Positions 9,903-64,000 of a stretch of 64,000 nt of DNA are shown one piece after another. A program made the position numbers and the translations under genes. Origin of the DNA: an uncultured bacterium. GTDB taxonomy: Bacteria > Zixibacteria > MSB-5A5 > GN15 > FEB-12. Location: contig CBDVDR010000012.1 in NCBI GenBank assembly GCA_965372795.1, positions 42,446 to 106,445 on the forward strand, written 5' to 3'. Numbering within the stretch: position 1 is the first letter of the stretch; each line of letters starts with the position of its first letter. The notes under the pieces are model-generated. The model had not been told where the DNA came from. It did not search any database and worked only from the letters and a program-made list of their open reading frames with translations.

Positions 9903-9904
9903 TA

Positions 9905-23462: not shown

Positions 23463-25361
23463 CTATGTTACTTTGTTCAATTCCTGAATAAAATCATCCG
23501 GCCCAATCACACCCTGAATCGTTTTTCTAACATTACCCTGAGAATCTAATATCAATATCGTAGGCAGTGAATAATGTTTCATATTAAATTTTTTCATAAA
23601 TATTTTTGTTTGAGGAGAATCCGCGGTTTCGAGTTGAGCTTTGATAGCCACGAATCTTTTTGATTCCTGAATAACAGCCAGGTTGCTAAAGGTTTTCTTA
23701 TCCAACACTTTACAATTTGCACACCAGGTTGCCCAGGTATCTATAATGACCGGCTTGTTTGTTTTTTTTGCCAGAGCTAAACCGGAATTAAGATCCTTTT
23801 CCCATTGAATTTTTTCTTTTTCTACCGCAGTTGTAGTTCCGGCAGGAAGGATTTCAGAAACAGGCGGAAGGATTAATCCTTCGGTTAAGATAACTCCCGC
23901 AATCAGATAAATACCAATCAATAAGGCTAATAGACCTATGAATTTTTTGAGTCTTAAAAAGAAACCTGCCTCCGGTGTTAAGCGATCAAGCCCACCTCCA
24001 AAGACACCAAACGCCAAGAGTAATAATCCGGTCAGTATGGCAACCAAAGTTACTGATATAATTGTGCTTAGGAAATAAATAGCCATCAAGAGAAGAATAA
24101 ATCCGAAGAATTTTTTAACCGTTTCCATCCAACCTCCGGAACCAGGCAATTGGTTCAAGGTCGAAGAGAATGTACCAATAATGATATATAAAGTACCTAG
24201 TCCCATCGCAAAGACAAAGAGTACAATAAATCCTATAAAAGGTGATCCACTGGTTGCAACATAAAGCAGAATACCGGCAACAAAAGGACCGACACATGGT
24301 GAAACAACTAAGGCTGCTATGACACCGAGGATAATTGATCCAAGAATACCTCCATCACCTTTGGCTGCTGTGCCAAGTTTCTGCCTAAGTGACATGGGTA
24401 CATTTAACTCATACACTCCGAACATCGAAAGCGAGAAGATAACAAAAACTATGGCAATACCAATTACAACGGGCGGGCTTGCCAGCCAGGCTCCGAAGAC
24501 ACCACCTACCAATGCGACAACTAATCCCATTAGACCATAAACTGTTGCCATTGAACCAACATAGAATAGCGACAGGAAAAAACCTCGGCCAACCGAACGA
24601 TTTTGACCTGCAAAGATACTAACTGTTATGGGAATCATTGGGTAGGTGCAGGGTGAAAAAGATAATACTAATCCGGTTACAAAGGCCAGTCCCAAGGCAA
24701 TAAAATAGCCCCATATTCCATGTTTATCAATCAGTTGCTGAATTTCGTTATCGGCTACTGTAGTTGAGGCTACCTGAACCGGTTGATTCTCTTCTGTATT
24801 TAAAGAAGCAAATATTTCGGTGTGGGTCGGTACACCTTCCGGGCCGACAATTATTGCCAAAGAAGCTGTCAGAGATTCAGGGGCACGGCATTCTCTGTCA
24901 TTACAAGGCTGGAAAGTCAATGTTACCGGAAGTTTATATTCGCCCGGGGTCAGATTATTATCGATTGTAACATTAAAACTGAAAACTGCTTCACCGCTAT
25001 ATAATGAAAACTTGTCTTCTCCGACAAAACCATCCTCACCTTTTGGGTATTTCACTGAATTGACTTTAATTCCTGAAATAGTAGCAAAATCTAATTTAGC
25101 GGCAATTAACCAATCTTCATAAGGAGCAGCAGAATTTATATGCCAGCCTTTAGAAATGTCAGCAATCAGGACAGCCTTATAATTCCCACCCGGAGCAGCT
25201 TGAGATATTGAGAATAAAGATTTAACCTGAACCAGTTCTTCCTCATTTAAAAATGAAGAGCCACCAAATTCAAGATCTTGAGATAAGAGGGGTATTGAAA
25301 TTAAAGAGAATATTAAACTGAATGTAATAGCAATACTGAATATTTTGAAACTTCTGGTCAT
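23463..25361 (-). CDS. dsbD: Thiol:disulfide interchange protein DsbD
   Basis: 632 aa. N-terminal periplasmic domain, a central TM domain with the Cys pair (…LSFSPCTYPMIP…) and a C-terminal thioredoxin domain (WATWCANCK). Confidence 0.9.
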   Translation of the reverse strand: MTRSFKIFSIAITFSLIFSLISIPLLSQDLEFGGSSFLNEEELVQVKSLFSISQAAPGGNYKAVLIADISKGWHINSAAPYEDWLIAAKLDFATISGIKVNSVKYPKGEDGFVGEDKFSLYSGEAVFSFNVTIDNNLTPGEYKLPVTLTFQPCNDRECRAPESLTASLAIIVGPEGVPTHTEIFASLNTEENQPVQVASTTVADNEIQQLIDKHGIWGYFIALGLAFVTGLVLSFSPCTYPMIPITVSIFAGQNRSVGRGFFLSLFYVGSMATVYGLMGLVVALVGGVFGAWLASPPVVIGIAIVFVIFSLSMFGVYELNVPMSLRQKLGTAAKGDGGILGSIILGVIAALVVSPCVGPFVAGILLYVATSGSPFIGFIVLFVFAMGLGTLYIIIGTFSSTLNQLPGSGGWMETVKKFFGFILLLMAIYFLSTIISVTLVAILTGLLLLAFGVFGGGLDRLTPEAGFFLRLKKFIGLLALLIGIYLIAGVILTEGLILPPVSEILPAGTTTAVEKEKIQWEKDLNSGLALAKKTNKPVIIDTWATWCANCKVLDKKTFSNLAVIQESKRFVAIKAQLETADSPQTKIFMKKFNMKHYSLPTILILDSQGNVRKTIQGVIGPDDFIQELNKVT

Positions 25362-36516: not shown

Positions 36517-39500
36517 TTATTTAAGTAATAGCATCTTCTTGGTTTTACTAAAGTTGTCTGTTTTCAAACGATAGAGATAGACACCGGAAGCAACCTGTGA
36601 GCCGGTACTGTTGGTACCATCCCACTGGATCGAGACGACACCGGCATCAGCAGACCCATCAAATTTTCTTACCAAGGCACCATTGATATTGTAAACTGTA
36701 ATTGACCAGTCAGATGGTTTTGGAAGAGCAAAATCAATATTAGTAATCGGATTAAACGGGTTAGGGTAGTTCTGATGCAATTCAAAAGCCGTCGGCAATG
36801 AGGTTCCTTTGAATACGGCATCAAATGGACGACCCTGATAATCAACGATTTCGACTTCTACAAATTCTATTGAGCCTGATCCATTGAACGGAATTTCAAA
36901 AATGTCATTTTTACCGGCATCAATCCGGTTATTACCAATATCAAATAAAATCACCAGTAACTGATCATCTACCACATTATGCAACAACTGCATCCCTTCG
37001 GCACCTTCGGCAACCCGTGGCTGTTGAATATCTACATCGCCAATCAGGTCAAACTTAAAGAGAGCACCGCCAATACTTGAAGCAGCATCAGTCGTAACTG
37101 TTTTAACACCTTTTTCAACAACATCTGTTATAGCCAGATTCTCTTCATTCGGAATAACTTTAGGAATCGGAAGAGCATCACCGACGATGATTCTAATAAG
37201 TAGAACCAGATCAGCAATTGTCAGAGTCAATCCATCAGCGTTTACATCTGTAGCAGCGACCTGCCCAACCGGATCAACTACAAAGACAGCCAGACCTCGA
37301 ATAAAGTAGTTTGAAAATACAACAGCATCAGCAATTTCGTATGGAACTCTATTTAAGTTTACATCTCCCCTTGAGCTATACTCTTCAAGAGGTAAAATAC
37401 AGATACCGCCATTATAATATTCTATACACCGTTCAGGGTTAGGTAGAGTTGAATTATTCAAACAACCATTTGAACCACCCATACCAAAAGGACGACTCAA
37501 TTCAGGGAAGTTTATGTCATCTTCCTCATCCCAAATCAAAATTCCTTCGGCATTATAAATCTTATTATTAAAATATGTCACATCACCATTAAGGGATGTA
37601 AAGGTATTATTATTACAAGCATACGTGAAGAATTTGATTGGTAGGAATTGGTTGCTTAGATTTTGATCATTGGCTATTCTAAATGAAATATCAATCAATA
37701 CATCTTGAGGTTTCAGAGATACATTTGGCGGGATAATTTCTCCGTCACCAAGACCAGCTATTCCTAAAAACTGAACTAAGCCAGACGGGCAAGCATTTCC
37801 ACAACTTTCTTCGCCAAGTCGGAAAGAGAAATATTCCCATCCAGCGATATCACTATTTGTAGTATCCGCTGACTGGAAAGACATGACTGTTTTATCATAT
37901 TCAATCATTATATTAAAACTGGTTATATAGTCGTTGGATTCAATCTTTAAAGATACATTATGAGCAACACCGACCCCATCGCACTCTCCGCCATCAATGG
38001 TCAAGCGGACACAAACATCACAGTCGCCTTTATCAACAACATTGACAAAGAAAGATTTGGATATTGTTTTACAACCATCGGTTGATTCAAAACAGAACTC
38101 ATAGTTACCAACTGTGTCCGGGCGGAAACAGACCTGACCAGTATCAGCATCTGTTAACTCCAGAGTCCCATCTCCGCAAGTCATTGTAATAAATGATTGT
38201 GATCTTGTATCAGTACTGAAAATGCCGTCAAAACATTTAAGAGTGGTATCCTGAGGACACCAGATAATGGTTGTATCGGCAGGCAGAGAAAGAATCGGGG
38301 CTTGATCATCAATAACATTCACGACCACATAACAGGTATCAGCACCGCATTGATTATCAGCGATAATTTGAATTTCATAGAATCCGGCGGTGTCGACCGG
38401 GAAACAAATTTCATTGCCGTTATATACACCAAGGGGGCTAATTGAAATATCTAAATCGGTTCCGGTGATAGTAATCGGTACGCAAATGGTTCCCAAAGTA
38501 TCAATACAAACTAATGTATCAATCGGCGGGGCACATACAACCAGAGGTTTCACGGGAATATGAATATCAAGATCAAAGCTGCAGGTGTCCGTCTGACATT
38601 GTGTCAGAGCAACAACCTCAACCGAACGTAAGCCTTCTTCTATAATATAAAGTGCTAAAGTCTGACTGGCAGCGTCGTAAACACCATTATCAACCGTTAC
38701 AATAGCATAATCAGGTTCTACAACAAAATTTTCAATATAGACAGTATCCGGTCCGCAGATGGTATCATAAACAATAGTTTGCGGGCAATTTATTGCGGCA
38801 AACCCACCAAGTTTATAATCTATTATAAGAGTATCAGAATATATTTCATTACAGGCATCAGTGACTGTTAGAATAATCGTATGCAGACCATAATCGTCCG
38901 GGGTAAAGAAATATTGGGTGCCTACTATAGAATCAACATTGGGCGAGGCAACTACCGAAGTAATATTATTATCATTGTCATAAAGATTAAATGAGAATGA
39001 TTTCTGAATCAAACCACATTCAGAGATAGAAATATCATCTCCCATAGATATGAATGGCGATGAATTAAAATCAGTCATAATATTGAATGAACATTGTTCA
39101 ATTCCACAAACACTATAAGCAGTCATGGAAATTTCCATGCTTCCTTGTGCCAGAACGGGTACGTAAACTTTGCCATCCATCAGATAAGCAGGTTCGGTAA
39201 CTTTGACCGAATCAACCAGCATTGAAGTTTGATAGTCAAAAGCTAAAGTATCAGGACCGCATAAGAACAACGGACCAACATCTCCGGGACAAACAATTCT
39301 ATCATCAATTGTTACAACAACAGTTGCATTAACGGTGACAGAATTACATTCGGCATTAGCTGTTATTTCAATATTATAAGTACCGGCGGTATCAGCATCA
39401 AAGCAGACTTCCCCGTTACTATATGTACCATAGTTTATAATCAACTCATCGTAAATACCGGTAAGATTTAGCGGAAGACAGATAATATCCGGCTGGCATA

Positions 39501-41667
39501 AATTCACTACCGAATCAGAAACTTGGGCAGTAATAGAATTACCTTCAGTAACAGTTACAAAAACCGTGTCACGGTCAACTTCCATACAAGCATCATAGAC
39601 CGAAACAATTATCTCATGAATACCATAACTATCAGGTGTAAAGCAGATCACGTCATTATTTATAAGACCATGAGTTGAAACTATCGAGTCGATATTGTTA
39701 TCCGGGTCACTATAAGAAATCGGATCCAGACATATTTCTGCAAGATCACATTGGCGAACTTCAAAATCAGCACCGGCTGTAATTATCGGGGAGCTGTTAA
39801 ATTCAGTACTGACATCAAAAGAACAAACGTCCTCTCCACAGACAGAAAAGGCTGTCATTGTAATAGTTTGAACACCGGGAGATAAAACAGGCACCATTAC
39901 CTGATTACCTACAAGATATGCCGGAGAAGAAACTTTGACCGAATCAACTAACGGCGAGATTTGATAATCAAAGACTAAGGTGTCAGCCTCGCATAATAAT
40001 AGTAAATCAGTGCTTGGCGGACAGGTAATCCGATCATCCATATGGACATCAACGGTGGCAGTGCTTACCGAAGTATTACATTCTGCTACAGCTGTAATTT
40101 CGATTGTGTATAGACCGGCAGTATCAGCCGGGAAACAAATAAATCCGTTGTCGTAGGTTCCAAAATTTGTATTTATGGTCTGATAGATTCCTGTAATAGA
40201 AACCGGCAGACATATATTATCAGGACCACAAAGATGAGCAAGAGAATCAGAAACATTTACAGTAACATAATCACCTTGTTCAACAGTTAACTCAATCAAC
40301 ACCTGATCGGTTTCGCCACACTCATCTTCGGCAACGACAATGATTGAATAATCACCAGCGGTATCAGGTGTAAAACAGTATTGACCGGAGACATAATTGT
40401 AATAACCAACGGTTCCGGTAACAGAAACAAGATTATTATCAATGTCGCTAACATCAACCGGCAAACAGATTTCTTCAAACACACACTGGCGGAAATAAGT
40501 TGTCGAAGGAGTATAGCTAAGAACCGGCGCCGTATTAGCAAAGATTGTTACATCAACAAAATCAGTGCTGATTTCGCCACACTCATCTATTACAGAAACC
40601 TGTACGGTATAAGTACCGAGAGTGTCAACGGTGAAACATATATAGTTAAATTTTGGATTATAAACAAATCCGTTGGCTAAATCCGTTTGGACATCAACAA
40701 TATTGTTATCATAATCAGAGATGCCAACCGGAACACAAACCTGTCCACCAATACAGGCGGCTAATGAATAATTTGCCGGGAGCGCAACCAGTGGAGGCTG
40801 GTTACAAAGGATTGTAACCGTAAAATTTTTCTCGTAAGTACCACAGGGTGTTGCGACAGTGATAGAGATCGGATTGGTAATACCACAGGATGAAGAGAAT
40901 GCAATCGCCTTAAGATCTGGATCATACCAGGTATTGATACCGGTAATAGTTGTATCAGAACCGGGAGGAACATTTTCAAGAGTAATCGGGAAATAATAGG
41001 TTCCGGTTTCACAAACAAAAACAGTAGTATCGTTCGGAACCTCAAAATCGATCTGGAAATCGGTTTGGATATAAATATTAGCCGTATCAGCTGAAACTTC
41101 ACCACATTCATCAGTGGCAGTAATTATAACTTCATAATAACCGGTGTCATAAGAAACAAACTGTAAAGTACTGGTCGTTAAATTCAGATAACCAAGATTG
41201 TTGGTAATACCTACAATGTTAGAATCGGGATCTGAAATAGTTACCGGTACATAGATCCAACCCGGGGCACATTGATAGTAGAGACTATCATTCATGCCGC
41301 TTACTACCGGCGGACGATTATCAGAAAGCTGATCAGTCATGTATGCCTGAACTAAGTTAGTGCCATCGGAAACCGAGACATGGAATAAATAAGTTCCGGC
41401 AGAACCGGGCGTGTAAGTAATTAATCCGGTAGAAGAATTGATACTTCCCGGACCAGATATTAATTCATATGTTAATGGATCATTTTCAGGATCAGTTGCA
41501 ACAACTTGAATTGTTCTATCCTGAACATTCCCGCAATAGCCGCCGAAGAAACCCTGGTCCTGAAATACAGGAGAGGCTCCTATTACATTACCGGCAGTAA
41601 ACCCGGAAATTATTAATAATAGAAAAAGTATTCTAGATTTTGAATAGTTTCTAAAAATCCCTATCAA
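36517..41667 (-). CDS. Giant secreted cell-surface protein. It has a signal peptide, multiple Cys-containing Ig-like/HYR-like repeats, a dockerin-like double Ca-binding module, and a C-terminal type IX secretion sorting domain.
   Basis: 1716 aa. Recurrent …CFTPDTAG.Y…V…DECGE… units. Dockerin-like segments DVNLNRVPYEIADAVVFSNYFI and DVNADGLTLTIADLVLLIRIIVG. The terminal ~80 aa (…NGALVRKF…SGVYLYRLKTDNFSKTKKMLLLK) match the T9SS CTD pattern. Confidence 0.8.
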   Translation of the reverse strand: MIGIFRNYSKSRILFLLLIISGFTAGNVIGASPVFQDQGFFGGYCGNVQDRTIQVVATDPENDPLTYELISGPGSINSSTGLITYTPGSAGTYLFHVSVSDGTNLVQAYMTDQLSDNRPPVVSGMNDSLYYQCAPGWIYVPVTISDPDSNIVGITNNLGYLNLTTSTLQFVSYDTGYYEVIITATDECGEVSADTANIYIQTDFQIDFEVPNDTTVFVCETGTYYFPITLENVPPGSDTTITGINTWYDPDLKAIAFSSSCGITNPISITVATPCGTYEKNFTVTILCNQPPLVALPANYSLAACIGGQVCVPVGISDYDNNIVDVQTDLANGFVYNPKFNYICFTVDTLGTYTVQVSVIDECGEISTDFVDVTIFANTAPVLSYTPSTTYFRQCVFEEICLPVDVSDIDNNLVSVTGTVGYYNYVSGQYCFTPDTAGDYSIIVVAEDECGETDQVLIELTVEQGDYVTVNVSDSLAHLCGPDNICLPVSITGIYQTINTNFGTYDNGFICFPADTAGLYTIEITAVAECNTSVSTATVDVHMDDRITCPPSTDLLLLCEADTLVFDYQISPLVDSVKVSSPAYLVGNQVMVPVLSPGVQTITMTAFSVCGEDVCSFDVSTEFNSSPIITAGADFEVRQCDLAEICLDPISYSDPDNNIDSIVSTHGLINNDVICFTPDSYGIHEIIVSVYDACMEVDRDTVFVTVTEGNSITAQVSDSVVNLCQPDIICLPLNLTGIYDELIINYGTYSNGEVCFDADTAGTYNIEITANAECNSVTVNATVVVTIDDRIVCPGDVGPLFLCGPDTLAFDYQTSMLVDSVKVTEPAYLMDGKVYVPVLAQGSMEISMTAYSVCGIEQCSFNIMTDFNSSPFISMGDDISISECGLIQKSFSFNLYDNDNNITSVVASPNVDSIVGTQYFFTPDDYGLHTIILTVTDACNEIYSDTLIIDYKLGGFAAINCPQTIVYDTICGPDTVYIENFVVEPDYAIVTVDNGVYDAASQTLALYIIEEGLRSVEVVALTQCQTDTCSFDLDIHIPVKPLVVCAPPIDTLVCIDTLGTICVPITITGTDLDISISPLGVYNGNEICFPVDTAGFYEIQIIADNQCGADTCYVVVNVIDDQAPILSLPADTTIIWCPQDTTLKCFDGIFSTDTRSQSFITMTCGDGTLELTDADTGQVCFRPDTVGNYEFCFESTDGCKTISKSFFVNVVDKGDCDVCVRLTIDGGECDGVGVAHNVSLKIESNDYITSFNIMIEYDKTVMSFQSADTTNSDIAGWEYFSFRLGEESCGNACPSGLVQFLGIAGLGDGEIIPPNVSLKPQDVLIDISFRIANDQNLSNQFLPIKFFTYACNNNTFTSLNGDVTYFNNKIYNAEGILIWDEEDDINFPELSRPFGMGGSNGCLNNSTLPNPERCIEYYNGGICILPLEEYSSRGDVNLNRVPYEIADAVVFSNYFIRGLAVFVVDPVGQVAATDVNADGLTLTIADLVLLIRIIVGDALPIPKVIPNEENLAITDVVEKGVKTVTTDAASSIGGALFKFDLIGDVDIQQPRVAEGAEGMQLLHNVVDDQLLVILFDIGNNRIDAGKNDIFEIPFNGSGSIEFVEVEIVDYQGRPFDAVFKGTSLPTAFELHQNYPNPFNPITNIDFALPKPSDWSITVYNINGALVRKFDGSADAGVVSIQWDGTNSTGSQVASGVYLYRLKTDNFSKTKKMLLLK
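38814..40278. repeat. Internal tandem duplication (2 x ~732 nt, 244 aa each) inside the giant T9SS protein gene
   Basis: Protein residues ~464-707 (GDYVTVNVSDSLAHLCGPDNICLPV…TVFVTVTE) and ~708-951 (GNSITAQVSDSVVNLCQPDIICLPL…) align colinearly with high identity. The unit junction at nt 39546 was confirmed (DRDTVFVTVTEG). Confidence 0.7.
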
Positions 41668-50785: not shown

Positions 50786-53290
50786 GTGATGAGTCTACGT
50801 AGAGCATGGATAGCTCTCATATTTATATTCAGCATTAGTCTGTTTGCCGGGTCGCTATCCGCCCAAGGAAATTATACTATTGTCGGTATTGAAGTAGAAG
50901 GCAATAGAAAAGCCAGTCGTTCTTTAATCTTAGGTGTATCCTCATTAGATATCGGATCGGCTATCTCCCCTACAGATATCACTGCTACTATCCAGCGTTT
51001 ATATGGTCTTGGTATTTTTTCAGATGTTATTATCGAAGCCGAAGAAGTCCCCGGCGGATTAAAAGTTTACATCGTTTTAAAGGAATTGCCTAAACTTATC
51101 GGATTAAATTTTGAAGGTAATGACAAAATAAAAGATAAAGATCTGAAGGATAAACTTGGACTTGGCGTTGGGGGGTATATTTCTCCGCATTTAATAAGTG
51201 AAAAAAAGAATAAGATTAAATCTATCTATGCTGATAAAGGATATTTCCAGGCTGAGATAACCTCCGAATTAATACATAATACTGATTCAACCGAAGCATC
51301 TTTATTATTTAACATTAAAGAACATGACAAGATTAAAGTTAAAGAAGTAATTGTAACTGGTAACAGCCGTGTTTCTACATCAAGTCTTATCAAAAAAATG
51401 CGCAACCGCAAACGCGGATTTCTGAAAAGCTCTGACTTCGCTCAGGAAAAGTACGTTGAAGATTTACAGAAGGTCATTGAGACTTATCATAACAAAGGTT
51501 TTATCGATGCCTTTATGATTTCAGATTCAATTCGTATTGATAGCCTCGATAATAAAATGATTGTCTATCTTGAAGTTTTTGAAGGTCCCATGTATTACTT
51601 TGGTAATACCGAGTTTGTTGACAATAAAAAACTAAATACTCACTACCTGACCAGAAAACTGAAGCATAAAGAAGGTCAACCGTTTAAGCAGGAAAATTAT
51701 GACGAGTCGATCTATGAACTTTATTCAGCCTATCAGGATATTGGCCATCTTCATGTTCAGATAACAGATGATCGGGTAACCAGATCTGATTCTATTATAG
51801 ATATTTCTTATAGCTTTTCCGAAAATCTCCCCTCAAAAATAAATGAAGTTCGGATTCTTGGTAATACTAAGACAAAAGATTATGTTATCAGACGTGAGAT
51901 TTCGACCCTTCCGGGGCAAACATTTAACCGCTCCCTTCTTATTCGTTCAGTTCGTGATGCGATGGCTTTGAACTATTTTACCAATGTTATGCCGATCCCT
52001 ATAAATCTTCCAAATGGCGATGTTGATGTTGAGTTTCAGGTTGAAGAAAAACAGACCGGACAAATTTCTGCCGGTGCCGGATATAATAGTCAGGATAAAC
52101 TGGTCGGTACTCTGGGAATGGCAATTCCAAATTTCAGAGGCAATGGGCAGAATGTTTCATTCAATGTTGATTTTGGCAGTCGAAGAAACTCATTTATGCT
52201 TTCTTTTACTGAACCATGGTTAATGGGCAGACCTACTTTGTTAGGATCGGATGCTTACACTACTAACCGTCGATGGTTTGATGATTATATTGAAGGCCGT
52301 CAGGGTGGCTCAATAAAACTTGGACGTCGTTTACGCTGGCCCGATAATTATTTCAGAGTGTTTACTTCTTATCGTTTAGAAAGAAATAGATTTTATGATT
52401 TTGATGATGCTTATTTATTAGAGAATTCTCAGAAGCATTATAATCAATATACTTTTGATAGAGTAATTATTGATGACGAGACAGGTCTTGAGGAAACAAT
52501 TACCGTTGACACAACTATCATAGTTGCAAGAGATCCTTTCCCCGGATCGATTATTGAATATAAAGAAGAATGGCTGACCTCTTCCCGGTTTTCTATATCT
52601 CTGACCCGAGATTCTCGTAATTTACCTGAATTTGCAACCAGTGGCTCACTGTTTCAATATACTTTTGAAAATACCGGTGGAATCTTAAGTGGATTTTGGG
52701 AATATCAAAAACACTCAATCTCTTTTGCGAAGTTTTTCCCGATTTACAAAAATATTGCATTTGCGGCCAAGGCTCAATATACTTTCACAACTTCCCCAAA
52801 GGGTGATGATCGCGTGTTGATTTCTGATCGATTTACTCCCGGTGGCACAGCTTATGACGGAATTGTTCGCGGTTATGAAGATGGTTCATTAACACCTGAC
52901 TCAGTAATTTCTTTTGCTGACACTTCTAATTTCTATACTGGTGAGCCTGGTGGAAGTGTAACTTTAGATAGCACTCTTGAACGAAGCTCAAGCTCATTTA
53001 CAACTCGAGTTCGCGGTAAATATATGTTAATTACAAACCTCGAACTTCAAGTTCCAATTGTACAAAATCAAATATATGGTTTAGCTTTTTTTGATGCTGG
53101 AGATACCTGGTTGATGAAAGAAGATATCAAACCATTTTATATGCATCGTTCTTTAGGTTTTGGGTTCCGAGTAGTCGTTCCGGGAATTGGAACGATTGGT
53201 TTTGACTTTGCCAAACGACTCGACAGTTCAACATCGGGCGAAAAAGGCGGTTGGAAACCACATTTCCAAATGGGTACCACATTTAGGTAA
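50786..53290 (+). CDS. bamA: Outer membrane protein assembly factor BamA
   Basis: 834 aa. Five POTRA-like repeats and a C-terminal Omp85 barrel. Followed by skp and lpxD, the canonical neighbourhood. Confidence 0.88.
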   Translation: MMSLRRAWIALIFIFSISLFAGSLSAQGNYTIVGIEVEGNRKASRSLILGVSSLDIGSAISPTDITATIQRLYGLGIFSDVIIEAEEVPGGLKVYIVLKELPKLIGLNFEGNDKIKDKDLKDKLGLGVGGYISPHLISEKKNKIKSIYADKGYFQAEITSELIHNTDSTEASLLFNIKEHDKIKVKEVIVTGNSRVSTSSLIKKMRNRKRGFLKSSDFAQEKYVEDLQKVIETYHNKGFIDAFMISDSIRIDSLDNKMIVYLEVFEGPMYYFGNTEFVDNKKLNTHYLTRKLKHKEGQPFKQENYDESIYELYSAYQDIGHLHVQITDDRVTRSDSIIDISYSFSENLPSKINEVRILGNTKTKDYVIRREISTLPGQTFNRSLLIRSVRDAMALNYFTNVMPIPINLPNGDVDVEFQVEEKQTGQISAGAGYNSQDKLVGTLGMAIPNFRGNGQNVSFNVDFGSRRNSFMLSFTEPWLMGRPTLLGSDAYTTNRRWFDDYIEGRQGGSIKLGRRLRWPDNYFRVFTSYRLERNRFYDFDDAYLLENSQKHYNQYTFDRVIIDDETGLEETITVDTTIIVARDPFPGSIIEYKEEWLTSSRFSISLTRDSRNLPEFATSGSLFQYTFENTGGILSGFWEYQKHSISFAKFFPIYKNIAFAAKAQYTFTTSPKGDDRVLISDRFTPGGTAYDGIVRGYEDGSLTPDSVISFADTSNFYTGEPGGSVTLDSTLERSSSSFTTRVRGKYMLITNLELQVPIVQNQIYGLAFFDAGDTWLMKEDIKPFYMHRSLGFGFRVVVPGIGTIGFDFAKRLDSSTSGEKGGWKPHFQMGTTFR

Positions 53291-53322
53291 AAATAATTTT
53301 CATATGATAGGGAGTTTTATTA

Positions 53323-53859
53323 ATGCGTCTTTTTAAAAACTATTTAATTGCCACTCTAATTTTAACCGTCGTCTGTTTTTCTGCAATAGGATCAGTTTCA
53401 GCACAAGGTTTGAAAATGGGTTTCGTAAATGACGAACGGATTAAAGTAGAGTATAAAGCCTGGCAAAAGGCTCAGGATGATTGGGAATTAGAAGCCAAAG
53501 CCTGGGAAGATGAAGCTGTTCAGATGCAGCAGGATCTACAGGATTTAGTTGATGAATTTGAAAAACAAAAGCTGATTCTTTCTGAAGAAAAGAAAAAAGA
53601 GAAAGAAGCTGCTATTAATGTCAAGACAGACGCCCTTGATAACTACACTCGTCGAATATTCGGTCCAAATGGGGAAGCTGAACGCAAACAGGCGCAATTG
53701 CTTCAGCCATTACTTGAAAAAGTAACTCAGTCAATTGAGGCGGTTGCTATTGAACAAAATTATGATGTAATTTTCACCCTTCAAAGCGGTTTGGGATATA
53801 TCAAGGAAAGTTACGACCTGACAGACAAAGTCCTTGAGTATCTTGACAATCTGGAATAA
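53323..53859 (+). CDS. skp: OmpH/Skp periplasmic chaperone
   Basis: 178 aa. Signal peptide and a long coiled-coil Skp-like body. Confidence 0.8.
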   Translation: MRLFKNYLIATLILTVVCFSAIGSVSAQGLKMGFVNDERIKVEYKAWQKAQDDWELEAKAWEDEAVQMQQDLQDLVDEFEKQKLILSEEKKKEKEAAINVKTDALDNYTRRIFGPNGEAERKQAQLLQPLLEKVTQSIEAVAIEQNYDVIFTLQSGLGYIKESYDLTDKVLEYLDNLE

Positions 53860-53865
53860 AATATT

Positions 53866-54873
53866 ATGCAGTTAACCCTCAAAGAAATTGCCGAACGCAT
53901 CGAGGGAACTGTACAAGGTAACGGCGACGCTATTATAAATGGTGTCGCCCCTATCTCTACAGCCAACAACAACGAAATCACCTTCATTGCGAATAAAGAA
54001 TATCTTAAATACTTAAGCGATACAAATGCCGGTGCGGTAGTGCTTGACCCGGATGCACCCGAAACTTCCATTCCTTCAATTCGTATTAAAAATCCATACC
54101 TGGCCTTTTCATATATAATTGATATTTTTAATCCTATCAAACCAAGAGTTGCTTCCGGAATTCATCCAACTGCGATAATCGGAGACAATGCAAAGATTGA
54201 CGACTCTGCAGGAATCGGAGCTTTTTGTCATTTTGAAAAAAACAGCAAAATTGGAAAGAACTGTCAATTTGTATCCTCTGTTTATATTGGAAAAAACGCA
54301 ACCATCGGTGATAATTGTCTGATTTACCCCGGGGTGAAAATAATGGATGACACCAAAATTGGTGATAATGTTATTATCCACGCTGGGACTGTGATTGGAT
54401 CGGATGGATTTGGATATGCCGAGAGCCCGATGGGTCTTAAAAAAATCCAACAAATTGGCTGGGTTGAAATTGGCAACAATGTCGAAATCGGCTCAAATGT
54501 GTCAATTGATCGGGGAGCATTGGGTCCGACAAAAATAGGTGACCGGACCAAAATTGATAATTTGGTGCAAATCGCTCATAATGTCGAAACGGGAACGGAC
54601 TGCATTATTATCAGTCAGGTTGGCATTGCCGGATCAACTAAACTTGGGAATAGAGTTATCCTTGCCGGTCAAGTTGGCTTAGTCGGACATATTACAATTG
54701 GTGATGATACAAAGGTTGGGGCTCAGTCCGGAGTCAAAAAGAATCTCGAAGCCGGTAAGACATATTTCGGTTCCCCTGCTCGTGAATTTATAGAAACATC
54801 TCGGATTGAGGCTTCTCTCAAACGACTTCCTGAATTATTAAAGAGAGTTAAAAAACTCGAAAAAGATCAGTAA
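53866..54873 (+). CDS. lpxD: UDP-3-O-acylglucosamine N-acyltransferase
   Basis: 335 aa. Left-handed beta-helix hexapeptide repeats. The lpxD-specific N-terminus and the catalytic His region are present. Confidence 0.93.
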   Translation: MQLTLKEIAERIEGTVQGNGDAIINGVAPISTANNNEITFIANKEYLKYLSDTNAGAVVLDPDAPETSIPSIRIKNPYLAFSYIIDIFNPIKPRVASGIHPTAIIGDNAKIDDSAGIGAFCHFEKNSKIGKNCQFVSSVYIGKNATIGDNCLIYPGVKIMDDTKIGDNVIIHAGTVIGSDGFGYAESPMGLKKIQQIGWVEIGNNVEIGSNVSIDRGALGPTKIGDRTKIDNLVQIAHNVETGTDCIIISQVGIAGSTKLGNRVILAGQVGLVGHITIGDDTKVGAQSGVKKNLEAGKTYFGSPAREFIETSRIEASLKRLPELLKRVKKLEKDQ

Positions 54874-58729: not shown

Positions 58730-58909
58730 TCATTTTACTTTTCAATGACTTCTATTTGCAAATGATTTCTATTTGCAAATAGAATTAAATTTCATTCAAA
58801 ATAAAACTTTATTTGTGAATAATTTATCTTTATTTACATAAAGATATTGACAAAAGAGTACCTTTTTGGTTTCATTTGTAAATGAAAATATATTTAACGG
58901 AGGTATAGA

Positions 58910-59653
58910 TTGAAACAACCTCGTATTCCTCAACAAGTCATTCCATTGGTAATCATATTTATAATTTTGATTGCTACCTTCATTTCAGTACGAACGGTTT
59001 TTGAACCGGAGTCCTTTGGTGAACTGGGACATTACCGTGCTGATGCCATTGGTGAGAATATGGACTTGGAACTAGTTTATGCCGGTTACGAAGCATGTTA
59101 TGACTGTCATGATGACATTTATGAAGAGAAACAGGATGCAAACCATCGATCAGTTTCGTGTGAAGTTTGTCATGGTCCAGCAGCAAAGCATGTTGAAGAA
59201 CCGGAAGAATTCACACCAACGGCACCCAGGGAAAGAGGTCAGTGTCCCCTTTGCCATGGATACAATGCCGCCCGTCCTTCAGGATTTCCTCAAATTTTAC
59301 CTGAACAGCATAACCTTGGAAAACCTTGTATGTCTTGCCATAACCCCCACAGCCCTACGACACCTAGTGCAATAGAAGATTGTAATGCTTGTCATAGAAA
59401 AATTTCACGGGTTATGAATGTCTCGCATCATACAACATTATCCTGTGAACAGTGTCATGTCGTACCTAAAGAACATTTCACTAATCCAAGATCAGTAGAC
59501 GCACAAAAACCAGTTTCTCGGAAATTATGTGGTTCTTGTCATGATAAGCAATCAAAAATAGCTGCAGGAATTCCCAAAATTAACATGATGACACATAATG
59601 AACGATACATGTGCTGGGATTGCCATTACGCACATTCTCCGGAGGCAAATTGA
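58910..59653 (+). CDS. Membrane-anchored octaheme c-type cytochrome
   Basis: 247 aa. N-terminal TM helix and eight CxxCH motifs (CYDCH, CEVCH, CPLCH, CMSCH, CNACH, CEQCH, CGSCH, CWDCH). Confidence 0.85.
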   Translation: MKQPRIPQQVIPLVIIFIILIATFISVRTVFEPESFGELGHYRADAIGENMDLELVYAGYEACYDCHDDIYEEKQDANHRSVSCEVCHGPAAKHVEEPEEFTPTAPRERGQCPLCHGYNAARPSGFPQILPEQHNLGKPCMSCHNPHSPTTPSAIEDCNACHRKISRVMNVSHHTTLSCEQCHVVPKEHFTNPRSVDAQKPVSRKLCGSCHDKQSKIAAGIPKINMMTHNERYMCWDCHYAHSPEAN

Positions 59654-60423
59654 TGAAATTTACCATACCAAAATTTCCACGTCGTGACTTTTTGAAAACA
59701 ATTTTCAAAAAAGCACCTACGATGGCAATTTTATTTTCAGGTATAGGCGCAACCAAATTATTTGGTCAGGACAATAGTGATTATGTTGCAGAAGATCATG
59801 ACTATGCAATGGGTATTGATATTCATAAATGTATCGGTTGTGGTCGATGCGCTGACGCCTGCAAAAATGAAAACAAAGTACCGCGGGAAAAACATTTTTT
59901 CAGAACCTGGGTTGAGAGATATATTATCCCGACTAAAGGAGAAACTATCGTTGAAAGCCCTAACGGTGGAATTGATGGTTTTCCGAAAGTAGATGAAAAA
60001 ATTGACGCCCTTAGAATGTTTTTTGTACCAAAGCTTTGCAATCATTGTAAAAATGCACCTTGTGTTCAGGTCTGTCCGGTAGGTGCAACATTTACTACAC
60101 CTGACGGAGTAGTTCTTGTCGACGAAAGTTATTGTGTAGGGTGTCGCTATTGTATTCAGGCTTGTCCATATGGCGCTCGTTATCTGCACCCTGAAAAAAT
60201 GACAGCTGACAAATGTACTTTCTGTTATCATAGAATTAGACAAGGTAAAGTACCGGCTTGTGTTGAAGTTTGTCCGACCAAAGCCAGGGTCTTTGGTGAA
60301 GTTGGTGAACATAGCAGCCCATTAAGACGGTTTATGCGTTTTAATGATGTAGTCGTATTAAAACCAGGATTGAATACCGAACCCAAAGTATTTTATTCCG
60401 GAGCAAACGGGGAGGTAAGATAG
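59653..60423 (+). CDS. Tat-exported 4x[4Fe-4S] ferredoxin-type subunit (NrfC/PsrB-like). The start was re-assigned to 59653.
   Basis: Twin-arginine signal MKFTIPKFPRRDFLKT preceded by GGAGG. Four Cys clusters (CIGCGRCADAC, CNHCKNAPCVQVCP, CVGCRYCIQACP, CTFCYHRI…CVEVCP). Its ATG overlaps the upstream TGA by 1 nt (TGATG). Confidence 0.85.
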   Translation: MKFTIPKFPRRDFLKTIFKKAPTMAILFSGIGATKLFGQDNSDYVAEDHDYAMGIDIHKCIGCGRCADACKNENKVPREKHFFRTWVERYIIPTKGETIVESPNGGIDGFPKVDEKIDALRMFFVPKLCNHCKNAPCVQVCPVGATFTTPDGVVLVDESYCVGCRYCIQACPYGARYLHPEKMTADKCTFCYHRIRQGKVPACVEVCPTKARVFGEVGEHSSPLRRFMRFNDVVVLKPGLNTEPKVFYSGANGEVR

Positions 60424-60424
60424 T

Positions 60425-61651
60425 ATGGATCCTGCCGCATTAGCAACAACAATGAATGAACTATCCGGAATCACCGGTTATATGTATCCAAATGAATATG
60501 AACTTCACTGGGGCATCCTGGTTGTTGTTTACCCTTATTTAACCGGATTGGTTGCCGGTGCCTTCATATTAGCTTCACTTGAAAGAGTTTTCAATGTTGA
60601 AGCTTTGAAACCGGTTTATCGTTTATCCTTGTTAACAGCCCTGTCATTTATGCTGATTGCCCCGCTTCCTCTTCTGGCTCATTTGGGTCATCCTGAAAGA
60701 TCTCTTGAAATGTTTTTAACACCTCACAGTAAATCCGCGATGGCAATGTTTGGTTTTGTATATGTCTGGTATTTGATGGTCGTACTCCTTCTCGAGATTT
60801 GGTTCGACTATCGAAAAGATATTATTGACATGGGTAACAGAAATACTGGAATCAAAAAATGGTTCTACAAACTTCTTGCTCTGGGTACAACTGATATTTC
60901 CCCTAAAGCACTTGCGATAGATGATAAGATTGGTAAAACAATTACGATTATCGGTATTCCCTCAGCCTTTTTACTTCATGGCTATGTTGGATTTATTTTT
61001 GGATCAATTAAAGCAAACCCGTGGTGGAGTTCAGTTTTGATGCCGATTGTATTTCTTTTCTCCGCGATTGTTTCTGGAATTGCGTTGATGCTTCTCATCT
61101 ATATGATTACCACAATGTTTAGGTGGAAGCAGATAAACATGAAATGTCTGAATAAGCTGGCTGAATTTTTATTATATGCAATTTTGATTGATTTCTCATT
61201 AGAATTACTCGATTTCATCCATCGCCTTTATGAATCTGAGGAATCAATTCATATTTTAACTCAACTGATTTCCAACAGGCTATTTATTAGTTTGATAATA
61301 GCTCAAATTCTCCTGGGGACAATAGTACCGATTATCGGTCTTGCAACCGCCAGATTCGGAAAATTCCCGCCTGAGATGAGAAGAATGATCTACTTTATCG
61401 CTGCCTTACTGGTTCAGGTAGGAATCTTCAGCACTCGCTGGAATGTAGTTATCGGTGGACAATTATTCTCAAAAAGTCTTCGAGGTTTAACCGTCTATAA
61501 AATGGAATTGTTCGGTATTGAGGGACTACTGGTTTCAGTGACGTTGATGATTATTCCGTTAATAATCCTTTATGTCCTGGTAAAGATTTTTCCTCCATGG
61601 GTACATGAAGAAAAAGAAAAACCCTCCGAACGGAAACTTGCAGAAATTTAA
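60425..61651 (+). CDS. NrfD/PsrC-family polytopic membrane quinol-interacting subunit
   Basis: 408 aa, about 8-10 TM helices. N-terminal …ELHWGILVVVYPYLTGLVAGAFILASL… typical of the NrfD family. Its start is 1 nt after the FeS gene stop. Confidence 0.85.
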   Translation: MDPAALATTMNELSGITGYMYPNEYELHWGILVVVYPYLTGLVAGAFILASLERVFNVEALKPVYRLSLLTALSFMLIAPLPLLAHLGHPERSLEMFLTPHSKSAMAMFGFVYVWYLMVVLLLEIWFDYRKDIIDMGNRNTGIKKWFYKLLALGTTDISPKALAIDDKIGKTITIIGIPSAFLLHGYVGFIFGSIKANPWWSSVLMPIVFLFSAIVSGIALMLLIYMITTMFRWKQINMKCLNKLAEFLLYAILIDFSLELLDFIHRLYESEESIHILTQLISNRLFISLIIAQILLGTIVPIIGLATARFGKFPPEMRRMIYFIAALLVQVGIFSTRWNVVIGGQLFSKSLRGLTVYKMELFGIEGLLVSVTLMIIPLIILYVLVKIFPPWVHEEKEKPSERKLAEI

Positions 61652-61681
61652 AATTAGTTATTCAATGATAGATATAATAAA

Positions 61682-61713
61682 AGCCAATCACTTTAAAGTG
61701 ATTGGCTTTTTTC
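61682..61713. terminator. Bidirectional rho-independent terminator between the convergent cytochrome operons
   Basis: aaaagccaatcactttaaagtgattggctttttt. A 10-bp stem with A- and T-runs on either side. Confidence 0.75.
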
Positions 61714-61740: not shown

Positions 61741-63732
61741 TTAAGAACCTGACTCAAGGTTCTTATATTTCTGAATCATCTCATCCATGATCCGAATATA
61801 TTCTTCGTTATTATGAATCCCGTAAGATTTATCCTTTTTGATTTTCTTAAAGGATTTTAAATCCTTATTAAAATTGTTGGATTGAAGTTTGTTCAATGGA
61901 AGCTCTTTAGCAAGCTCAATAACGATTTCCAACTCATCAATTTTATCTTTAACTTCTGCCTGCCAATTATCACCAATGTCGACATATTCGCTTTCATGGC
62001 AGTTTTCACAAGATTGCATATGAGGACGCACTATTTTTTCGTCTTCCGAAGTGTGGCATTCTTCACAGCTAATTTCAGCTTCAGCCATCACGCTTGTTTC
62101 AAAAACAAAGCCATTAAACTTGCCGCCATTATATGCTTTAGCCTGAAGTTCATGACATCTGTTACAGTCGCCGGCTGTTGCTTTTTGATGGTGACAACTC
62201 TGACAATCTTTTACGAATTTAAAGGTTTGACCGTGCCTTCTCTGGTGAGTATGACAATCGGCACATTCTTTACCGGCTTTCAAATGAAGACCGTGTTCAA
62301 AGCTCCTATTGGGAAGTTCAACAGTAATATTATCAATAGTAGCATGACAGTTTTTACAGTCACTCGGCACCATCTGTTTTTGTGAGAATAAAGTAGTCGG
62401 ATCGACAAATATTTCCAGCTTTTTACCGGCTTTACTAAGATCATCAAAAGATGAGAATAACAGTTCGTTAGAATAGACAATATTATGAACCGGTTTTCCA
62501 TAGCGAACTATATCAAGATTTGTTCTGGCATTTTTAATCAGTGGAATTACTTCACTAAAGTTAGATTTACTGGACTTATCATAACTGTTTTCAACTTTGT
62601 TCATTAGTTTGCTGAGATACTGAACTTTATTCTTAATTGTTTTATTCCACTGAACTAAAAGGCGATCATACCCTTTACCATGACATGGTTCACAGGAATT
62701 TTCACCGGCAATAAAGGTCGTTCCGCCATTAGGCATAGTTTCGGTAGCATGTTGCACATGACATCCCTGGCAGGACATCGAAATATTATACATCGGATTA
62801 GGATGATTTTTGACACCAATACCACCCTCGCCACTAAATAATTTTAACTGATTTTGATGCATTCCCTGATGACAGCCACCACAATGTTCGGCAGCATTTT
62901 CAGGAGTTGTCCATTTATGCTCCATCGGGCTATGACATTGTTCACACTCAATTTTATTTTCTGTAATATGTTTGCGGTGCATTAGCTCAGAATCATTAAA
63001 CTTACTTAACCGGTCTTGATCCCAGTGACAGAAATAGCATCCTTTATCATTTACAGCACCGTCACCTACAAGCATATTTCCGTGACAGCGACGACAGTCG
63101 AGTGAATCAGCTAAAATCTTGGTATGATCATATCCCTGTTCTGTAATACTTTTCGGTTCAACCGAAGGATCATGGCATAGGCGACAATCATCAGTATCCA
63201 TTTCGCCTTCATGTTTTTCTGTTTCTTTGAAGTGACACAATACGCATGTAGAAGCGGTTACAGTCATGTGTTCACCCTGTACAATCTGAGAGTGACAGGA
63301 GGTACAACGAAGTTTTCTTCCTCGTCTTAGTTCTGACAAATGGGGACCATGATCAAACTTTACATTGCCAAACATGACTTCACCTTGAAGAAGTCGAGTA
63401 TCGTGGCATCCTTCTCTTAAGCAGGAAGCATCATCAATTTCAGCCCAGGGTTTACTTTTACGATAGGCGTTTGTAGCATATTTTACCAGCTGATTGATAT
63501 CATGGATTTTACCCATGATCATATTTTCATATCCGGGAGTGTAATGGCATAAATCGCACGAAACATCTTTGTGGCTGGATTCTTTCCAGGCATCGTAATA
63601 AGGTTCCATATAATGGCATGACCGACAGAAATCCGGTCGATTTGTGAATTCTATCATTCCAACGGTTCCACCAACAATAAGAAGGATGAAACCCCCGAAG
63701 TAGATTAGAATTTTTTTAACTTTTTTATGCAT
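61741..63732 (-). CDS. Large membrane-anchored multiheme c-type cytochrome (about 17 CxxCH plus one CX4CH) with a NapC/NirT/NrfH-type N-terminal module
   Basis: 663 aa. N-terminal TM helix, then …FTNRPDFCRSCHYMEPYYDAWKESSHKDVSCDLCHY… (NapC/NrfH-like). Further motifs: CTSCH, CVLCH, CRLCH, CRRCH, CYFCH, CEQCH, CGGCH, CQGCH, CEPCH, CKNCH, CADCH, CQSCH, CNRCH, CEECH, CENCH, and an atypical CLREGCH. Confidence 0.85.
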   Translation of the reverse strand: MHKKVKKILIYFGGFILLIVGGTVGMIEFTNRPDFCRSCHYMEPYYDAWKESSHKDVSCDLCHYTPGYENMIMGKIHDINQLVKYATNAYRKSKPWAEIDDASCLREGCHDTRLLQGEVMFGNVKFDHGPHLSELRRGRKLRCTSCHSQIVQGEHMTVTASTCVLCHFKETEKHEGEMDTDDCRLCHDPSVEPKSITEQGYDHTKILADSLDCRRCHGNMLVGDGAVNDKGCYFCHWDQDRLSKFNDSELMHRKHITENKIECEQCHSPMEHKWTTPENAAEHCGGCHQGMHQNQLKLFSGEGGIGVKNHPNPMYNISMSCQGCHVQHATETMPNGGTTFIAGENSCEPCHGKGYDRLLVQWNKTIKNKVQYLSKLMNKVENSYDKSSKSNFSEVIPLIKNARTNLDIVRYGKPVHNIVYSNELLFSSFDDLSKAGKKLEIFVDPTTLFSQKQMVPSDCKNCHATIDNITVELPNRSFEHGLHLKAGKECADCHTHQRRHGQTFKFVKDCQSCHHQKATAGDCNRCHELQAKAYNGGKFNGFVFETSVMAEAEISCEECHTSEDEKIVRPHMQSCENCHESEYVDIGDNWQAEVKDKIDELEIVIELAKELPLNKLQSNNFNKDLKSFKKIKKDKSYGIHNNEEYIRIMDEMIQKYKNLESGS

Positions 63733-64000
63733 CGATATTTCCTCTATTTGACCTACTCATCTCTTTCGAGGAGAAAACATAACAAATATCATTTAGATGT
63801 CAATACAAATAATACAAATTTAGTGTTATTTTTCACAAACTTATTTATTTCAACCTTTATTTTCAAGGCTTTACAGTAATTTATATTTCAATGATCTCTA
63901 ATCAATGAGAATTATATCATTATAAGACAAAATATATCCTGATATTTTATGAAAAAATAATACCGTATCATCACTTATTCCATAGACTTAGAAATTAATA

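Follow-up and report, generated by a model that had tools for sequence, protein, structure and literature searches.

The stretch analysed here (hereafter the window) is a 64-kb segment of a 337-kb metagenome scaffold, contig CBDVDR010000012.1, from an uncultured Zixibacteria-like bacterium. At positions 58910-61651 of its forward strand lies a trio of coupled genes coding for an octaheme cytochrome c, an NrfC-like iron-sulfur (FeS) protein and an NrfD-like membrane protein, whose make-up, distribution and probable role in respiratory electron transfer are the subject of this report (Table 1). An initial annotation had proposed that these genes are translationally coupled, with a TGATG overlap at the first junction and a 1-nt gap at the second, and a base-level reading at 59653 and 60425 bears this out: the TGA of the octaheme gene and the ATG of the FeS gene share the base A at 59653. 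We place the start of the FeS gene at this ATG, and the public ENA gene call likewise yields a protein of 256 residues. A GTG further upstream at 59611, the start given for this gene in the list of open reading frames (ORFs), was rejected in favor of the TGATG-coupled ATG with its GGAGG ribosome-binding site.

The trio is bracketed by an inverted repeat in the gap that separates it from lgt and by a hairpin beyond its last gene, which implies that the operon comprises these three genes only. The inverted repeat is probably either the terminator of lgt or an operator, i.e., a regulator-binding site, and it would form the upstream edge of the operon; the hairpin is probably a bidirectional terminator that forms the downstream edge. 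Within the inverted repeat the palindrome ATTTGCAAAT is present twice.

The product of the first gene contains exactly eight CXXCH motifs, beginning at residues 63, 84, 112, 140, 158, 179, 207 and 235. These are preceded by a single hydrophobic helix (residues ~9-27) and a linker (28-57), and are distributed over two tetraheme units arranged in tandem (58-150 and 153-245). Across an alignment of 25 homologues (identity to the window protein 52-60%), none of the eight motifs varies, and eight further histidines are equally invariant (H79, H94, H134, H147, H174, H189, H229 and H242). As this provides one candidate distal histidine per heme, all eight hemes are predicted to be bis-histidine (bis-His) ligated. 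The count of eight heme-binding sites put forward in the initial annotation is thereby upheld at the sequence level, rather than dwindling to far fewer on closer analysis. With 247 residues the protein has about 31 residues for each heme, its CXXCH motifs are all canonical, it shows no match to MccA, and it has no room for an active site. We considered and rejected a cleavable signal peptide at its N-terminus: the hydrophobic stretch is long, has no Ala-x-Ala motif and is confidently modelled as a helix, and CbcS, the cytochrome of the Cbc4 complex (CbcSTU) of Geobacter sulfurreducens discussed below, is described as anchored. The AlphaFold model of the octaheme protein as a whole is poor, with a predicted local distance difference test (pLDDT) score of 66, and was built without hemes; a Foldseek search with this heme-free model recovered no significant matches.

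We found that the two halves of this cytochrome align without gaps at ~31% identity (29/93 positions; BLAST E 2e-15). Both the spacing between successive CXXCH motifs (21, 28, 28) and the distance between a motif histidine and the invariant histidine that follows it (12, 6, 18, 3) are the same in the two halves. When the cysteines and histidines are held fixed, the halves share 13 other identities as against 4.7 ± 2.1 in shuffled sequences, a value reached by only 6 of 20,000 shuffles. A library-wide search further recovered many relatives of ~155 residues that match only residues 5-150 of the octaheme protein, that is, the anchor, the linker and a single tetraheme unit, as well as a 362-residue relative (P0243, known from sequence only) with 12 CXXCH motifs and apparently three tetraheme units. 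The homology of the halves, taken together with these single-unit and 12-heme relatives, indicates that the octaheme protein arose as a tandem duplication of a ~93-residue tetraheme cassette. The number of such cassettes varies across the cytochrome family, and in another octaheme relative (P0241, 317 residues) an insertion of ~70 residues separates the two units.

The second gene product begins with MKFTIPKFPRRDFLK, a twin-arginine translocation (Tat) motif (RRDFLK). Its cysteines number exactly 16 and fall into four ferredoxin-type groups, which would suffice for four [4Fe-4S] clusters. The initial annotation had likewise ascribed to this subunit a Tat signal, four [4Fe-4S] motifs and a GGAGG ribosome-binding site, which lies at 59641-59645. 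In profile searches it matches the Pfam Fer4_11 model (1.3e-27). Its closest solved relative is the Thermus PsrB protein (2vpw_B, 1.4e-48), and the next PDB matches are the beta subunits of arsenate respiratory reductase, ethylbenzene dehydrogenase and nitrate reductase, and ActB of alternative complex III. Its best NCBIfam scores are to TtrB (198.7 bits), DsrO (179.2) and NrfC (162.0), and it falls below every curated cutoff (416, 200 and 377.6 bits, respectively, for these three); with the HmcB model it reaches 108.9 bits, the cutoff being 420.

The third gene product matches the Pfam NrfD family with an E-value of 5.9e-40 and scores 48 bits against the NCBIfam NrfD model (cutoff 347.6) and 45 bits against DsrP (cutoff 350). 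Searches of the PDB sequences returned no match, either with the protein alone or with a 21-sequence profile, even at E <= 1, and its fold was therefore compared by means of an AlphaFold model (pLDDT 77.5; predicted template-modelling score, pTM, 0.81). This model is an all-helical bundle with ~10 transmembrane helices, and the protein has no cofactor motifs. The top structural matches of the model are to ActC from three alternative complex III structures (template-modelling score, TM-score, 0.60-0.67), followed by ActF and PsrC. The modelled fold places the protein in the 10-helix, cofactor-free NrfD class, which also includes ActC/F, QrcD, DsrP, NhcC and HybB, and it is presumed to hold the quinol/quinone site. 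The domain assignments agree with the description of the two downstream proteins as NrfC- and NrfD-like in the initial annotation.

Among the species genomes scanned, 456 carry a relative of the cytochrome. They span about ten phyla, with carriers in Zixibacteria, Ignavibacteria/Melioribacteraceae, Eisenbacteria, Omnitrophota, Bdellovibrionota, Acidobacteriota, Gemmatimonadota, Latescibacterota, Calditrichota and Myxococcota; the best homologues of the window proteins are from Zixibacteria. For the analysis of gene order we used the 80 best loci from a scan of one genome per species, and all identities quoted below for related loci are relative to the window proteins. The cytochrome gene is followed by an NrfC-like gene in 79 of the 80 loci and the NrfD-like gene is present in 73; as far as checked, the exceptions (L019, L046, L066, L073, L079 and L080) lie at contig ends. 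The arrangement of the trio is thus far beyond chance. Median identity at these loci rises from 54% for the cytochrome through 66% for the FeS subunit to 73% for the membrane subunit, which is strikingly conserved between phyla.

The genes that recur next to the trio are themselves redox genes. A nonaheme cytochrome of ~430 residues is found beside it in 32/80 loci, cytochrome b in 23/80 and a Rieske protein in 21/80 (the latter two by Pfam assignment), while homologues of the 17-heme cytochrome that adjoins the trio in the window (33-46% identity) lie directly beside it in 11/80. At least one other multiheme gene is encoded within 10 kb in 43 of the 80 loci. Examples with Rieske, cytochrome b and nonaheme genes near the trio are L006, L017, L022 (5070-7903) and L077; none of these genes is present in the window. 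Where they occur, two distinct quinol-interacting modules adjoin each other.

Downstream of the genes for the single-unit tetraheme relatives, which are from Bryobacteraceae, there is again an NrfC- and an NrfD-like gene, with products 52% and 62% identical to those of the window. Since a tetraheme and an octaheme cytochrome precede the same pair, the NrfC- and NrfD-like proteins constitute one orthologous family whose cytochrome partner is of variable length. In two of these genomes (L082, 9631-11734; L084, 9401-11528) the tetraheme module is followed by a polytopic membrane protein of ~555 residues without a Pfam match, and a ~140-residue protein with a CarboxypepD_reg domain is also encoded 3' of it. 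We rejected the polytopic protein as a conserved partner because no more than 2 of the 80 octaheme loci encode a homologue of it. In several Bdellovibrionota and one genome labelled as Ignavibacteria, a second, divergent module is encoded near the trio (L036, 7024-9889; L065, 7458-9860; L051, L053 and L068). It consists of a different tetraheme cytochrome (~180 residues) with NrfC-like (31-45% identity) and NrfD-like (22-24% identity) proteins, and is situated directly upstream of the trio in L036, L065 and L068, upstream with two genes between in L051, and several genes downstream in L053.

A search for a catalytic partner gave a consistently negative result. CXXCH motifs occur in only two ORFs of the window. 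A scan of nine window ORFs (the large ones of unclear identity and three mid-sized ones) found no molybdopterin enzyme, and included among these ORFs AsmA/TamB/Omp85 proteins, DsbD, an acetyl-CoA synthetase and a protein sorted by the type IX secretion system. Clustering of all ORFs at the 80 related loci likewise revealed no recurrent neighbor of catalytic type or of the size of a molybdopterin subunit; the only recurrent genes were those for the cytochromes, the Rieske protein and cytochrome b. We saw no gene for a periplasmic reductase within 74 kb (the window and its flank), and none for a hydrogenase or formate dehydrogenase near the operon. The claim that the module has no catalytic partner in the window thus withstood both the scan of the window and the comparison across loci.

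The initial annotation had also asked for further multiheme and porin-cytochrome genes, and both kinds appear to be close at hand. Convergent with the trio is the gene for the 17-heme cytochrome, which is the last entry in Table 1. Its N-terminus resembles NapC/NirT/NrfH proteins (Pfam 3.8e-8; TIGR NrfH 5.4e-11; PDB NrfH 2j7a_C 1.8e-6), and it is a likely redox partner of the trio. Just beyond window position 64000 the source contig carries a divergent gene set (L001, 3693-9644) that includes an MtrA/DmsE-like decaheme cytochrome (308 residues, signal peptide; TIGR03508 (DmsE) 7.8e-42, 6r2q_A 5e-21), a 522-residue secreted protein and a lipoprotein hexaheme cytochrome (354 residues) with a match to MtrC domain II/IV. 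The make-up of this set resembles that of the porin-cytochrome conduits that serve extracellular electron transfer, the 522-residue protein being its putative porin. Mtr/porin-cytochrome clusters have previously been noted in Zixibacteria. The same set also encodes a 41-residue ORF, a BamD-like protein with tetratricopeptide repeats (487 residues) and a 204-residue protein.

Table 1. Genes and sequence features of the trio and its immediate flanks (positions in the window).
Feature	Position	Strand	Details
Perfect 14-nt inverted repeat	58750..58784	.	TTCTATTTGCAAAT / ATTTGCAAATAGAA, 7-nt loop; 21 nt past lgt stop
GGAGG ribosome-binding site, octaheme gene	58899..58903	+	6 nt 5' of TTG start; read from sequence
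Octaheme cytochrome c gene	58910..59653	+	TTG start; TGA stop 59651-59653; 247 aa
GGAGG ribosome-binding site, FeS gene	59641..59645	+	within 3' end of cytochrome gene
NrfC/CbcT-like FeS gene	59653..60423	+	ATG start; TAG stop 60421-60423; 256 aa
GGAGG ribosome-binding site, NrfD-like gene	60411..60415	+	
NrfD/CbcU-like gene	60425..61651	+	ATG 60425, 1-nt gap after FeS-gene stop; 408 aa
Hairpin, 14-bp stem	61679..61710	.	AAAAGCCAATCACT-TTAA-AGTGATTGGCTTTT; separates convergent nrfD-like and 17-heme genes
Convergent multiheme cytochrome	61741..63732	-	663 aa, membrane-anchored, 17 CXXCH + one CX4CH

On a wider scale the operon sits amid housekeeping and envelope-biogenesis genes (lgt, lpxD, bamA), a setting that is common to the closest syntenic relative, L016, and partly to L007. 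The genes for BamA, Skp and LpxD are at window positions 50786-54873, and other outer-membrane biogenesis genes (AsmA-like, TamA/Omp85-like and TamB) are at 2-2101 and 7968-13450 on the reverse strand. The same strand encodes a DsbD-type thiol:disulfide transporter (23463-25361) with DsbD_TM and thioredoxin domains, which is relevant to cytochrome c maturation given the many multiheme proteins of this organism, and a 1716-residue protein (36517-41667) with PKD/Ig domains and a C-terminal Por_Secre_tail for type IX sorting, which fits a host from the Fibrobacterota-Chlorobiota-Bacteroidota (FCB) group.

Taken together, these observations make it reasonably probable that the trio forms an inner-membrane heterotrimer acting as a quinol:cytochrome c oxidoreductase of the Cbc4 (CbcSTU) or 'orphan NrfCD' type, which would feed an extracellular route. 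In such a complex, menaquinol would be bound and oxidized near the periplasmic face of the NrfD-like subunit, and its electrons would be taken up by the Tat-exported NrfC-like subunit with its four [4Fe-4S] clusters. From there they would enter a chain of eight low-potential bis-His hemes in the anchored cytochrome, in effect two copies of a CbcS-like tetraheme unit. The sequence and the model show the genes and their cofactor motifs, the topology signals, the fold class, the conserved order of the trio and its neighborhood; the assembly of the three proteins, the order of the cofactors, the quinone substrate, the direction of flow, any proton translocation and the identity of the partners are things we infer. 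Having no substrate-reducing site, the complex would hand its electrons on to other periplasmic multiheme cytochromes. The likeliest recipients at this locus may be the 17-heme NrfH-like cytochrome and, beyond it, the MtrA-like decaheme, the putative porin and the lipoprotein hexaheme, an arrangement that would carry electrons out of the cell to Fe(III), Mn(IV) or acceptors of that kind.

This refines two claims of the initial annotation. That the trio is a periplasm-facing quinol-oxidizing module stands with regard to the type of module, given its domains, the hairpins and the gene order, whereas the direction of flow is a matter that sequence cannot settle. The suggestion of an output to periplasmic or extracellular acceptors fits the 17-heme and Mtr-like surroundings; however, the number of hemes on which it had been based is no pointer to such an output because the octaheme cytochrome is a duplicated tetraheme, the four-heme form of which precedes the same NrfC/NrfD pair.

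Several points weigh against an oxidoreductase that feeds an extracellular route. The Mtr-like set, i.e., an MtrA-like, a porin-like and a lipoprotein cytochrome gene, was found at only one of the 80 other loci (L028), where the series runs lipoprotein cytochrome, putative porin, MtrA-like, Rieske, cytochrome b, nonaheme, trio and 20-heme cytochrome, and it is absent from the visible flank of L016. The adjacency of the trio to such a set is thus not conserved and can be taken as suggestive. The 522-residue protein has no Pfam, NCBIfam or PDB match and is called a putative porin solely because its gene lies between those of the MtrA-like and lipoprotein cytochromes. At 37 of the 80 loci the 10 kb around the trio contain no further multiheme gene. 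As for the relatives, the octaheme subfamily is known from sequence alone; Cbc4 has no physiological role assigned to it in the literature, and a cbcS mutant retains Fe(III) and Mn(IV) reduction. The likeness to Cbc4 itself was judged from published descriptions and two six-residue fragments of CbcS. Finally, modules of the NrfD type run either way, with Qrc and Nhc reducing quinone.

A broader view would see the trio, the Rieske/cytochrome b-nonaheme genes and the 17-heme NrfH-like cytochrome as parts of a widespread, unstudied respiratory supercluster that, outside the Proteobacteria and Desulfuromonadia models, would be the main quinol gateway to extracellular or periplasmic electron transfer. 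Its hosts would include Zixibacteria, Ignavibacteria, Acidobacteriota, Gemmatimonadota, Omnitrophota, Bdellovibrionota and others, and the reach of the heme wire into the periplasm would be governed by the number of tetraheme units, with totals of 4, 8 or 12 hemes. We regard this as a tentative possibility, and a rather doubtful one.

It is also conceivable, although unlikely, that the complex is a general periplasmic electron hub that, comparable to complex III, acts alongside the Rieske/cytochrome b-nonaheme genes and supplies nitrite, N2O and other cytochrome-dependent reductases. The commonest neighbors of the trio across phyla are indeed the nonaheme, cytochrome b and Rieske genes rather than porins, and this frequent pairing, along with the loci that have no other multiheme cytochrome nearby, favors a hub over a role strictly dedicated to extracellular transfer. 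Moreover, the operon of this Zixibacteria-like lineage lies amid the housekeeping genes lgt, lpxD and bamA, the trio is present in Bdellovibrionota, Gemmatimonadota and other lineages for which metal respiration is not a known trait, and the Shewanella SirCD pair substitutes for CymA with several acceptors. Yet, at the window the nearest redox genes are the 17-heme cytochrome and the Mtr-like set, and the 74 kb surveyed contain no visible gene for a periplasmic reductase of the kind that a hub would supply. The hub also overlaps heavily with a quinol:cytochrome c oxidoreductase feeding extracellular acceptors, differing from it in the breadth of partners only.

The same complex might instead run in reverse, as a cytochrome c:quinone reductase that, like Qrc and Nhc, feeds the menaquinone pool with electrons from Fe(II) oxidation via the MtrA-like/porin conduit or from the periplasmic oxidation of H2 or formate. 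Apart from the precedent of these NrfD-type quinone reductases, Mtr and CymA-type systems are bidirectional, and the Mtr-like cluster of Zixibacteria RBG-1 was interpreted by its authors as more likely to serve Fe(II) oxidation. Their reading was prompted by the absence of an MtrC-like lipoprotein cytochrome, which is present here; furthermore, the transfer from Fe(II) to quinone would be uphill through the predicted bis-His hemes (~-140 mV for the CbcS type), and hydrogenase and formate dehydrogenase genes are lacking nearby. We consequently hold the reverse direction to be improbable. That the FeS and membrane subunits are the electron-transfer pair of a molybdoenzyme (Psr/Ttr/Arr-like) or of an Nrf nitrite reductase with its catalytic subunit encoded elsewhere is suggested by the NCBIfam ranking of TtrB, DsrO and NrfC and the closeness of PsrB, but it is highly improbable and largely refuted by the conserved gene order, in that the cytochrome occupies the position of the catalytic gene in 80/80 loci and no conserved neighbor there has the size of a molybdopterin subunit, while the FeS subunit is under all the TtrB, DsrO and NrfC cutoffs and the membrane subunit is far below that for NrfD (48 vs 347.6 bits) and has no sequence relative in the PDB.

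The finding overturns nothing, and a specialist would find no surprise in the trio. Nonetheless, outside Shewanella and Geobacter the exit of electrons from the quinone pool is one of the least understood steps in extracellular electron transfer, and the strict synteny of the module, the ~73% median identity of its membrane subunit and its occurrence in hundreds of uncultured lineages from sediment and groundwater make it a strong candidate for this step. Its wide distribution and high conservation also render it a reasonable target for study. In this regard, the repeatable CbcS-like tetraheme cassette ties the octaheme cytochrome to its one biochemically studied relative, and thereby offers a handle for annotation and for expression tests.

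That relative belongs to the Cbc4 complex of Geobacter sulfurreducens, which comprises CbcS (GSU0068), CbcT (GSU0069) and CbcU (GSU0070). CbcS is a 160-residue tetraheme cytochrome anchored in the inner membrane (anchor 1-29, linker 30-58), whose four hemes are bis-His ligated and whose apparent midpoint potential is ~-139 mV at pH 7, and in its reduced form it donates electrons to PpcA in vitro; CbcT has four [4Fe-4S] clusters and CbcU is the integral membrane subunit. Cbc4 and the trio thus share an anchored bis-His multiheme cytochrome, a periplasmic protein carrying four [4Fe-4S] clusters and a third subunit integral to the membrane, and neither has a catalytic subunit. Its features are recognizable in the window as an N-terminal helix, a linker and a tetraheme cytochrome domain (here in two units, with heme binding predicted), a four-cluster FeS subunit and an NrfD-like subunit encoded third. 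The layout of CbcS, with the tetraheme domain from about residue 59, recurs in the single-unit relatives and in the first half of the octaheme protein (anchor 9-27, first cysteine 63), and the CbcS fragments derived from primers, DFGVHE (30-35) and RTKAYC (59-64), fit the linker motif of the family and the position of the first heme. A scan of metagenome contigs with a 19-nt sequence derived from a cbcS primer gave 31 chance matches, none with the second primer site or a nearby CXXCH. The two systems differ in that CbcS has four hemes as opposed to eight here, the tetraheme unit being doubled, and in their hosts, Desulfuromonadia for Cbc4 and a Zixibacteria-like bacterium for the trio.

A second parallel is the 'NrfCD cluster' of Melioribacter roseus (Mros1572/Mros1571), which is without a molybdopterin subunit and was proposed to be a quinol:acceptor reductase feeding multiheme cytochromes for Fe(III) reduction, an idea repeated for similar modules in the genome paper on the MBNT15 bacterium SHF-111. 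We liken Mros1571/1572 to the trio by their published description, and a Melioribacteraceae genome among our loci (L077) carries the same trio at 48%, 57% and 66% identity. Both published clusters are known from genome annotation, and neither paper describes the octaheme partner or its duplication; a term search of the Melioribacter multi-omics paper found no mention of the NrfCD cluster or its genes. With these descriptions of Cbc4/CbcSTU and of the Melioribacter cluster, the analogy to Cbc-type complexes drawn in the initial annotation is matched in the literature. The 'octaheme' of the Caldithrix genome paper, which we considered in this connection, is an unrelated epsilon-Hao/Otr enzyme.

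Other systems resemble the trio in part. Nhc and Hmc, from sulfate reducers, likewise combine a multiheme cytochrome c, a periplasmic protein with four [4Fe-4S] clusters and a 10-helix NrfD-like subunit without a catalytic subunit. NhcA is a soluble, c3-type cytochrome. By its description the Desulfovibrio NhcA has nine hemes, which sets it apart from the anchored tandem tetraheme of the trio; the fourth gene of NhcABCD has no NhcD-like counterpart in the operon, and Nhc is thought to reduce quinone. In alternative complex III, ActA is a multiheme cytochrome with an N-terminal anchor and is reduced by an FeS subunit, and ActC is structurally the closest protein to the membrane subunit model, though without a match at the sequence level. 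However, ActB chains have 933-1039 residues with a molybdopterin-like ActB1 domain, as against 256 residues with only ferredoxin domains in the FeS subunit here, and the three-gene operon has no genes for ActD, ActE or ActF. The SirCD of Shewanella, MccCD of Wolinella and NrfBCD of Escherichia coli resemble the trio in being built around a quinol dehydrogenase pair of the NrfC/NrfD type that serves c-type cytochromes, and MccA carries a special heme motif. The SirA/MccA octaheme cytochrome is, however, a sulfite reductase (732 residues in the MccA PDB chain), whereas the octaheme protein here has 247 residues. In the Nrf system NrfB is a soluble pentaheme protein and NrfA is catalytic, and neither is encoded in the window.

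The molybdenum-bis(pyranopterin guanine dinucleotide) (Mo-bisPGD) subunit that marks the Psr/Ttr/Arr/Dms molybdoenzymes is absent from the operon, from the nine window ORFs scanned and from the 80 loci. With regard to DsrMKJOP, the FeS subunit comes close to the DsrO cutoff (179.2 vs 200), but the membrane subunit is far from that of DsrP (45 vs 350) and the DsrMK genes are absent. Thus, Nhc/Hmc, alternative complex III, Nrf, Psr/Ttr, Dsr, Qrc and Mcc/Sir all share parts of the design of the trio, and each departs from it in one or more defining features. The idea that a cytochrome can take the place of the catalytic subunit in an NrfCD module is already in the literature, and the variant feature of the system described here is its tandem-duplicated octaheme partner.

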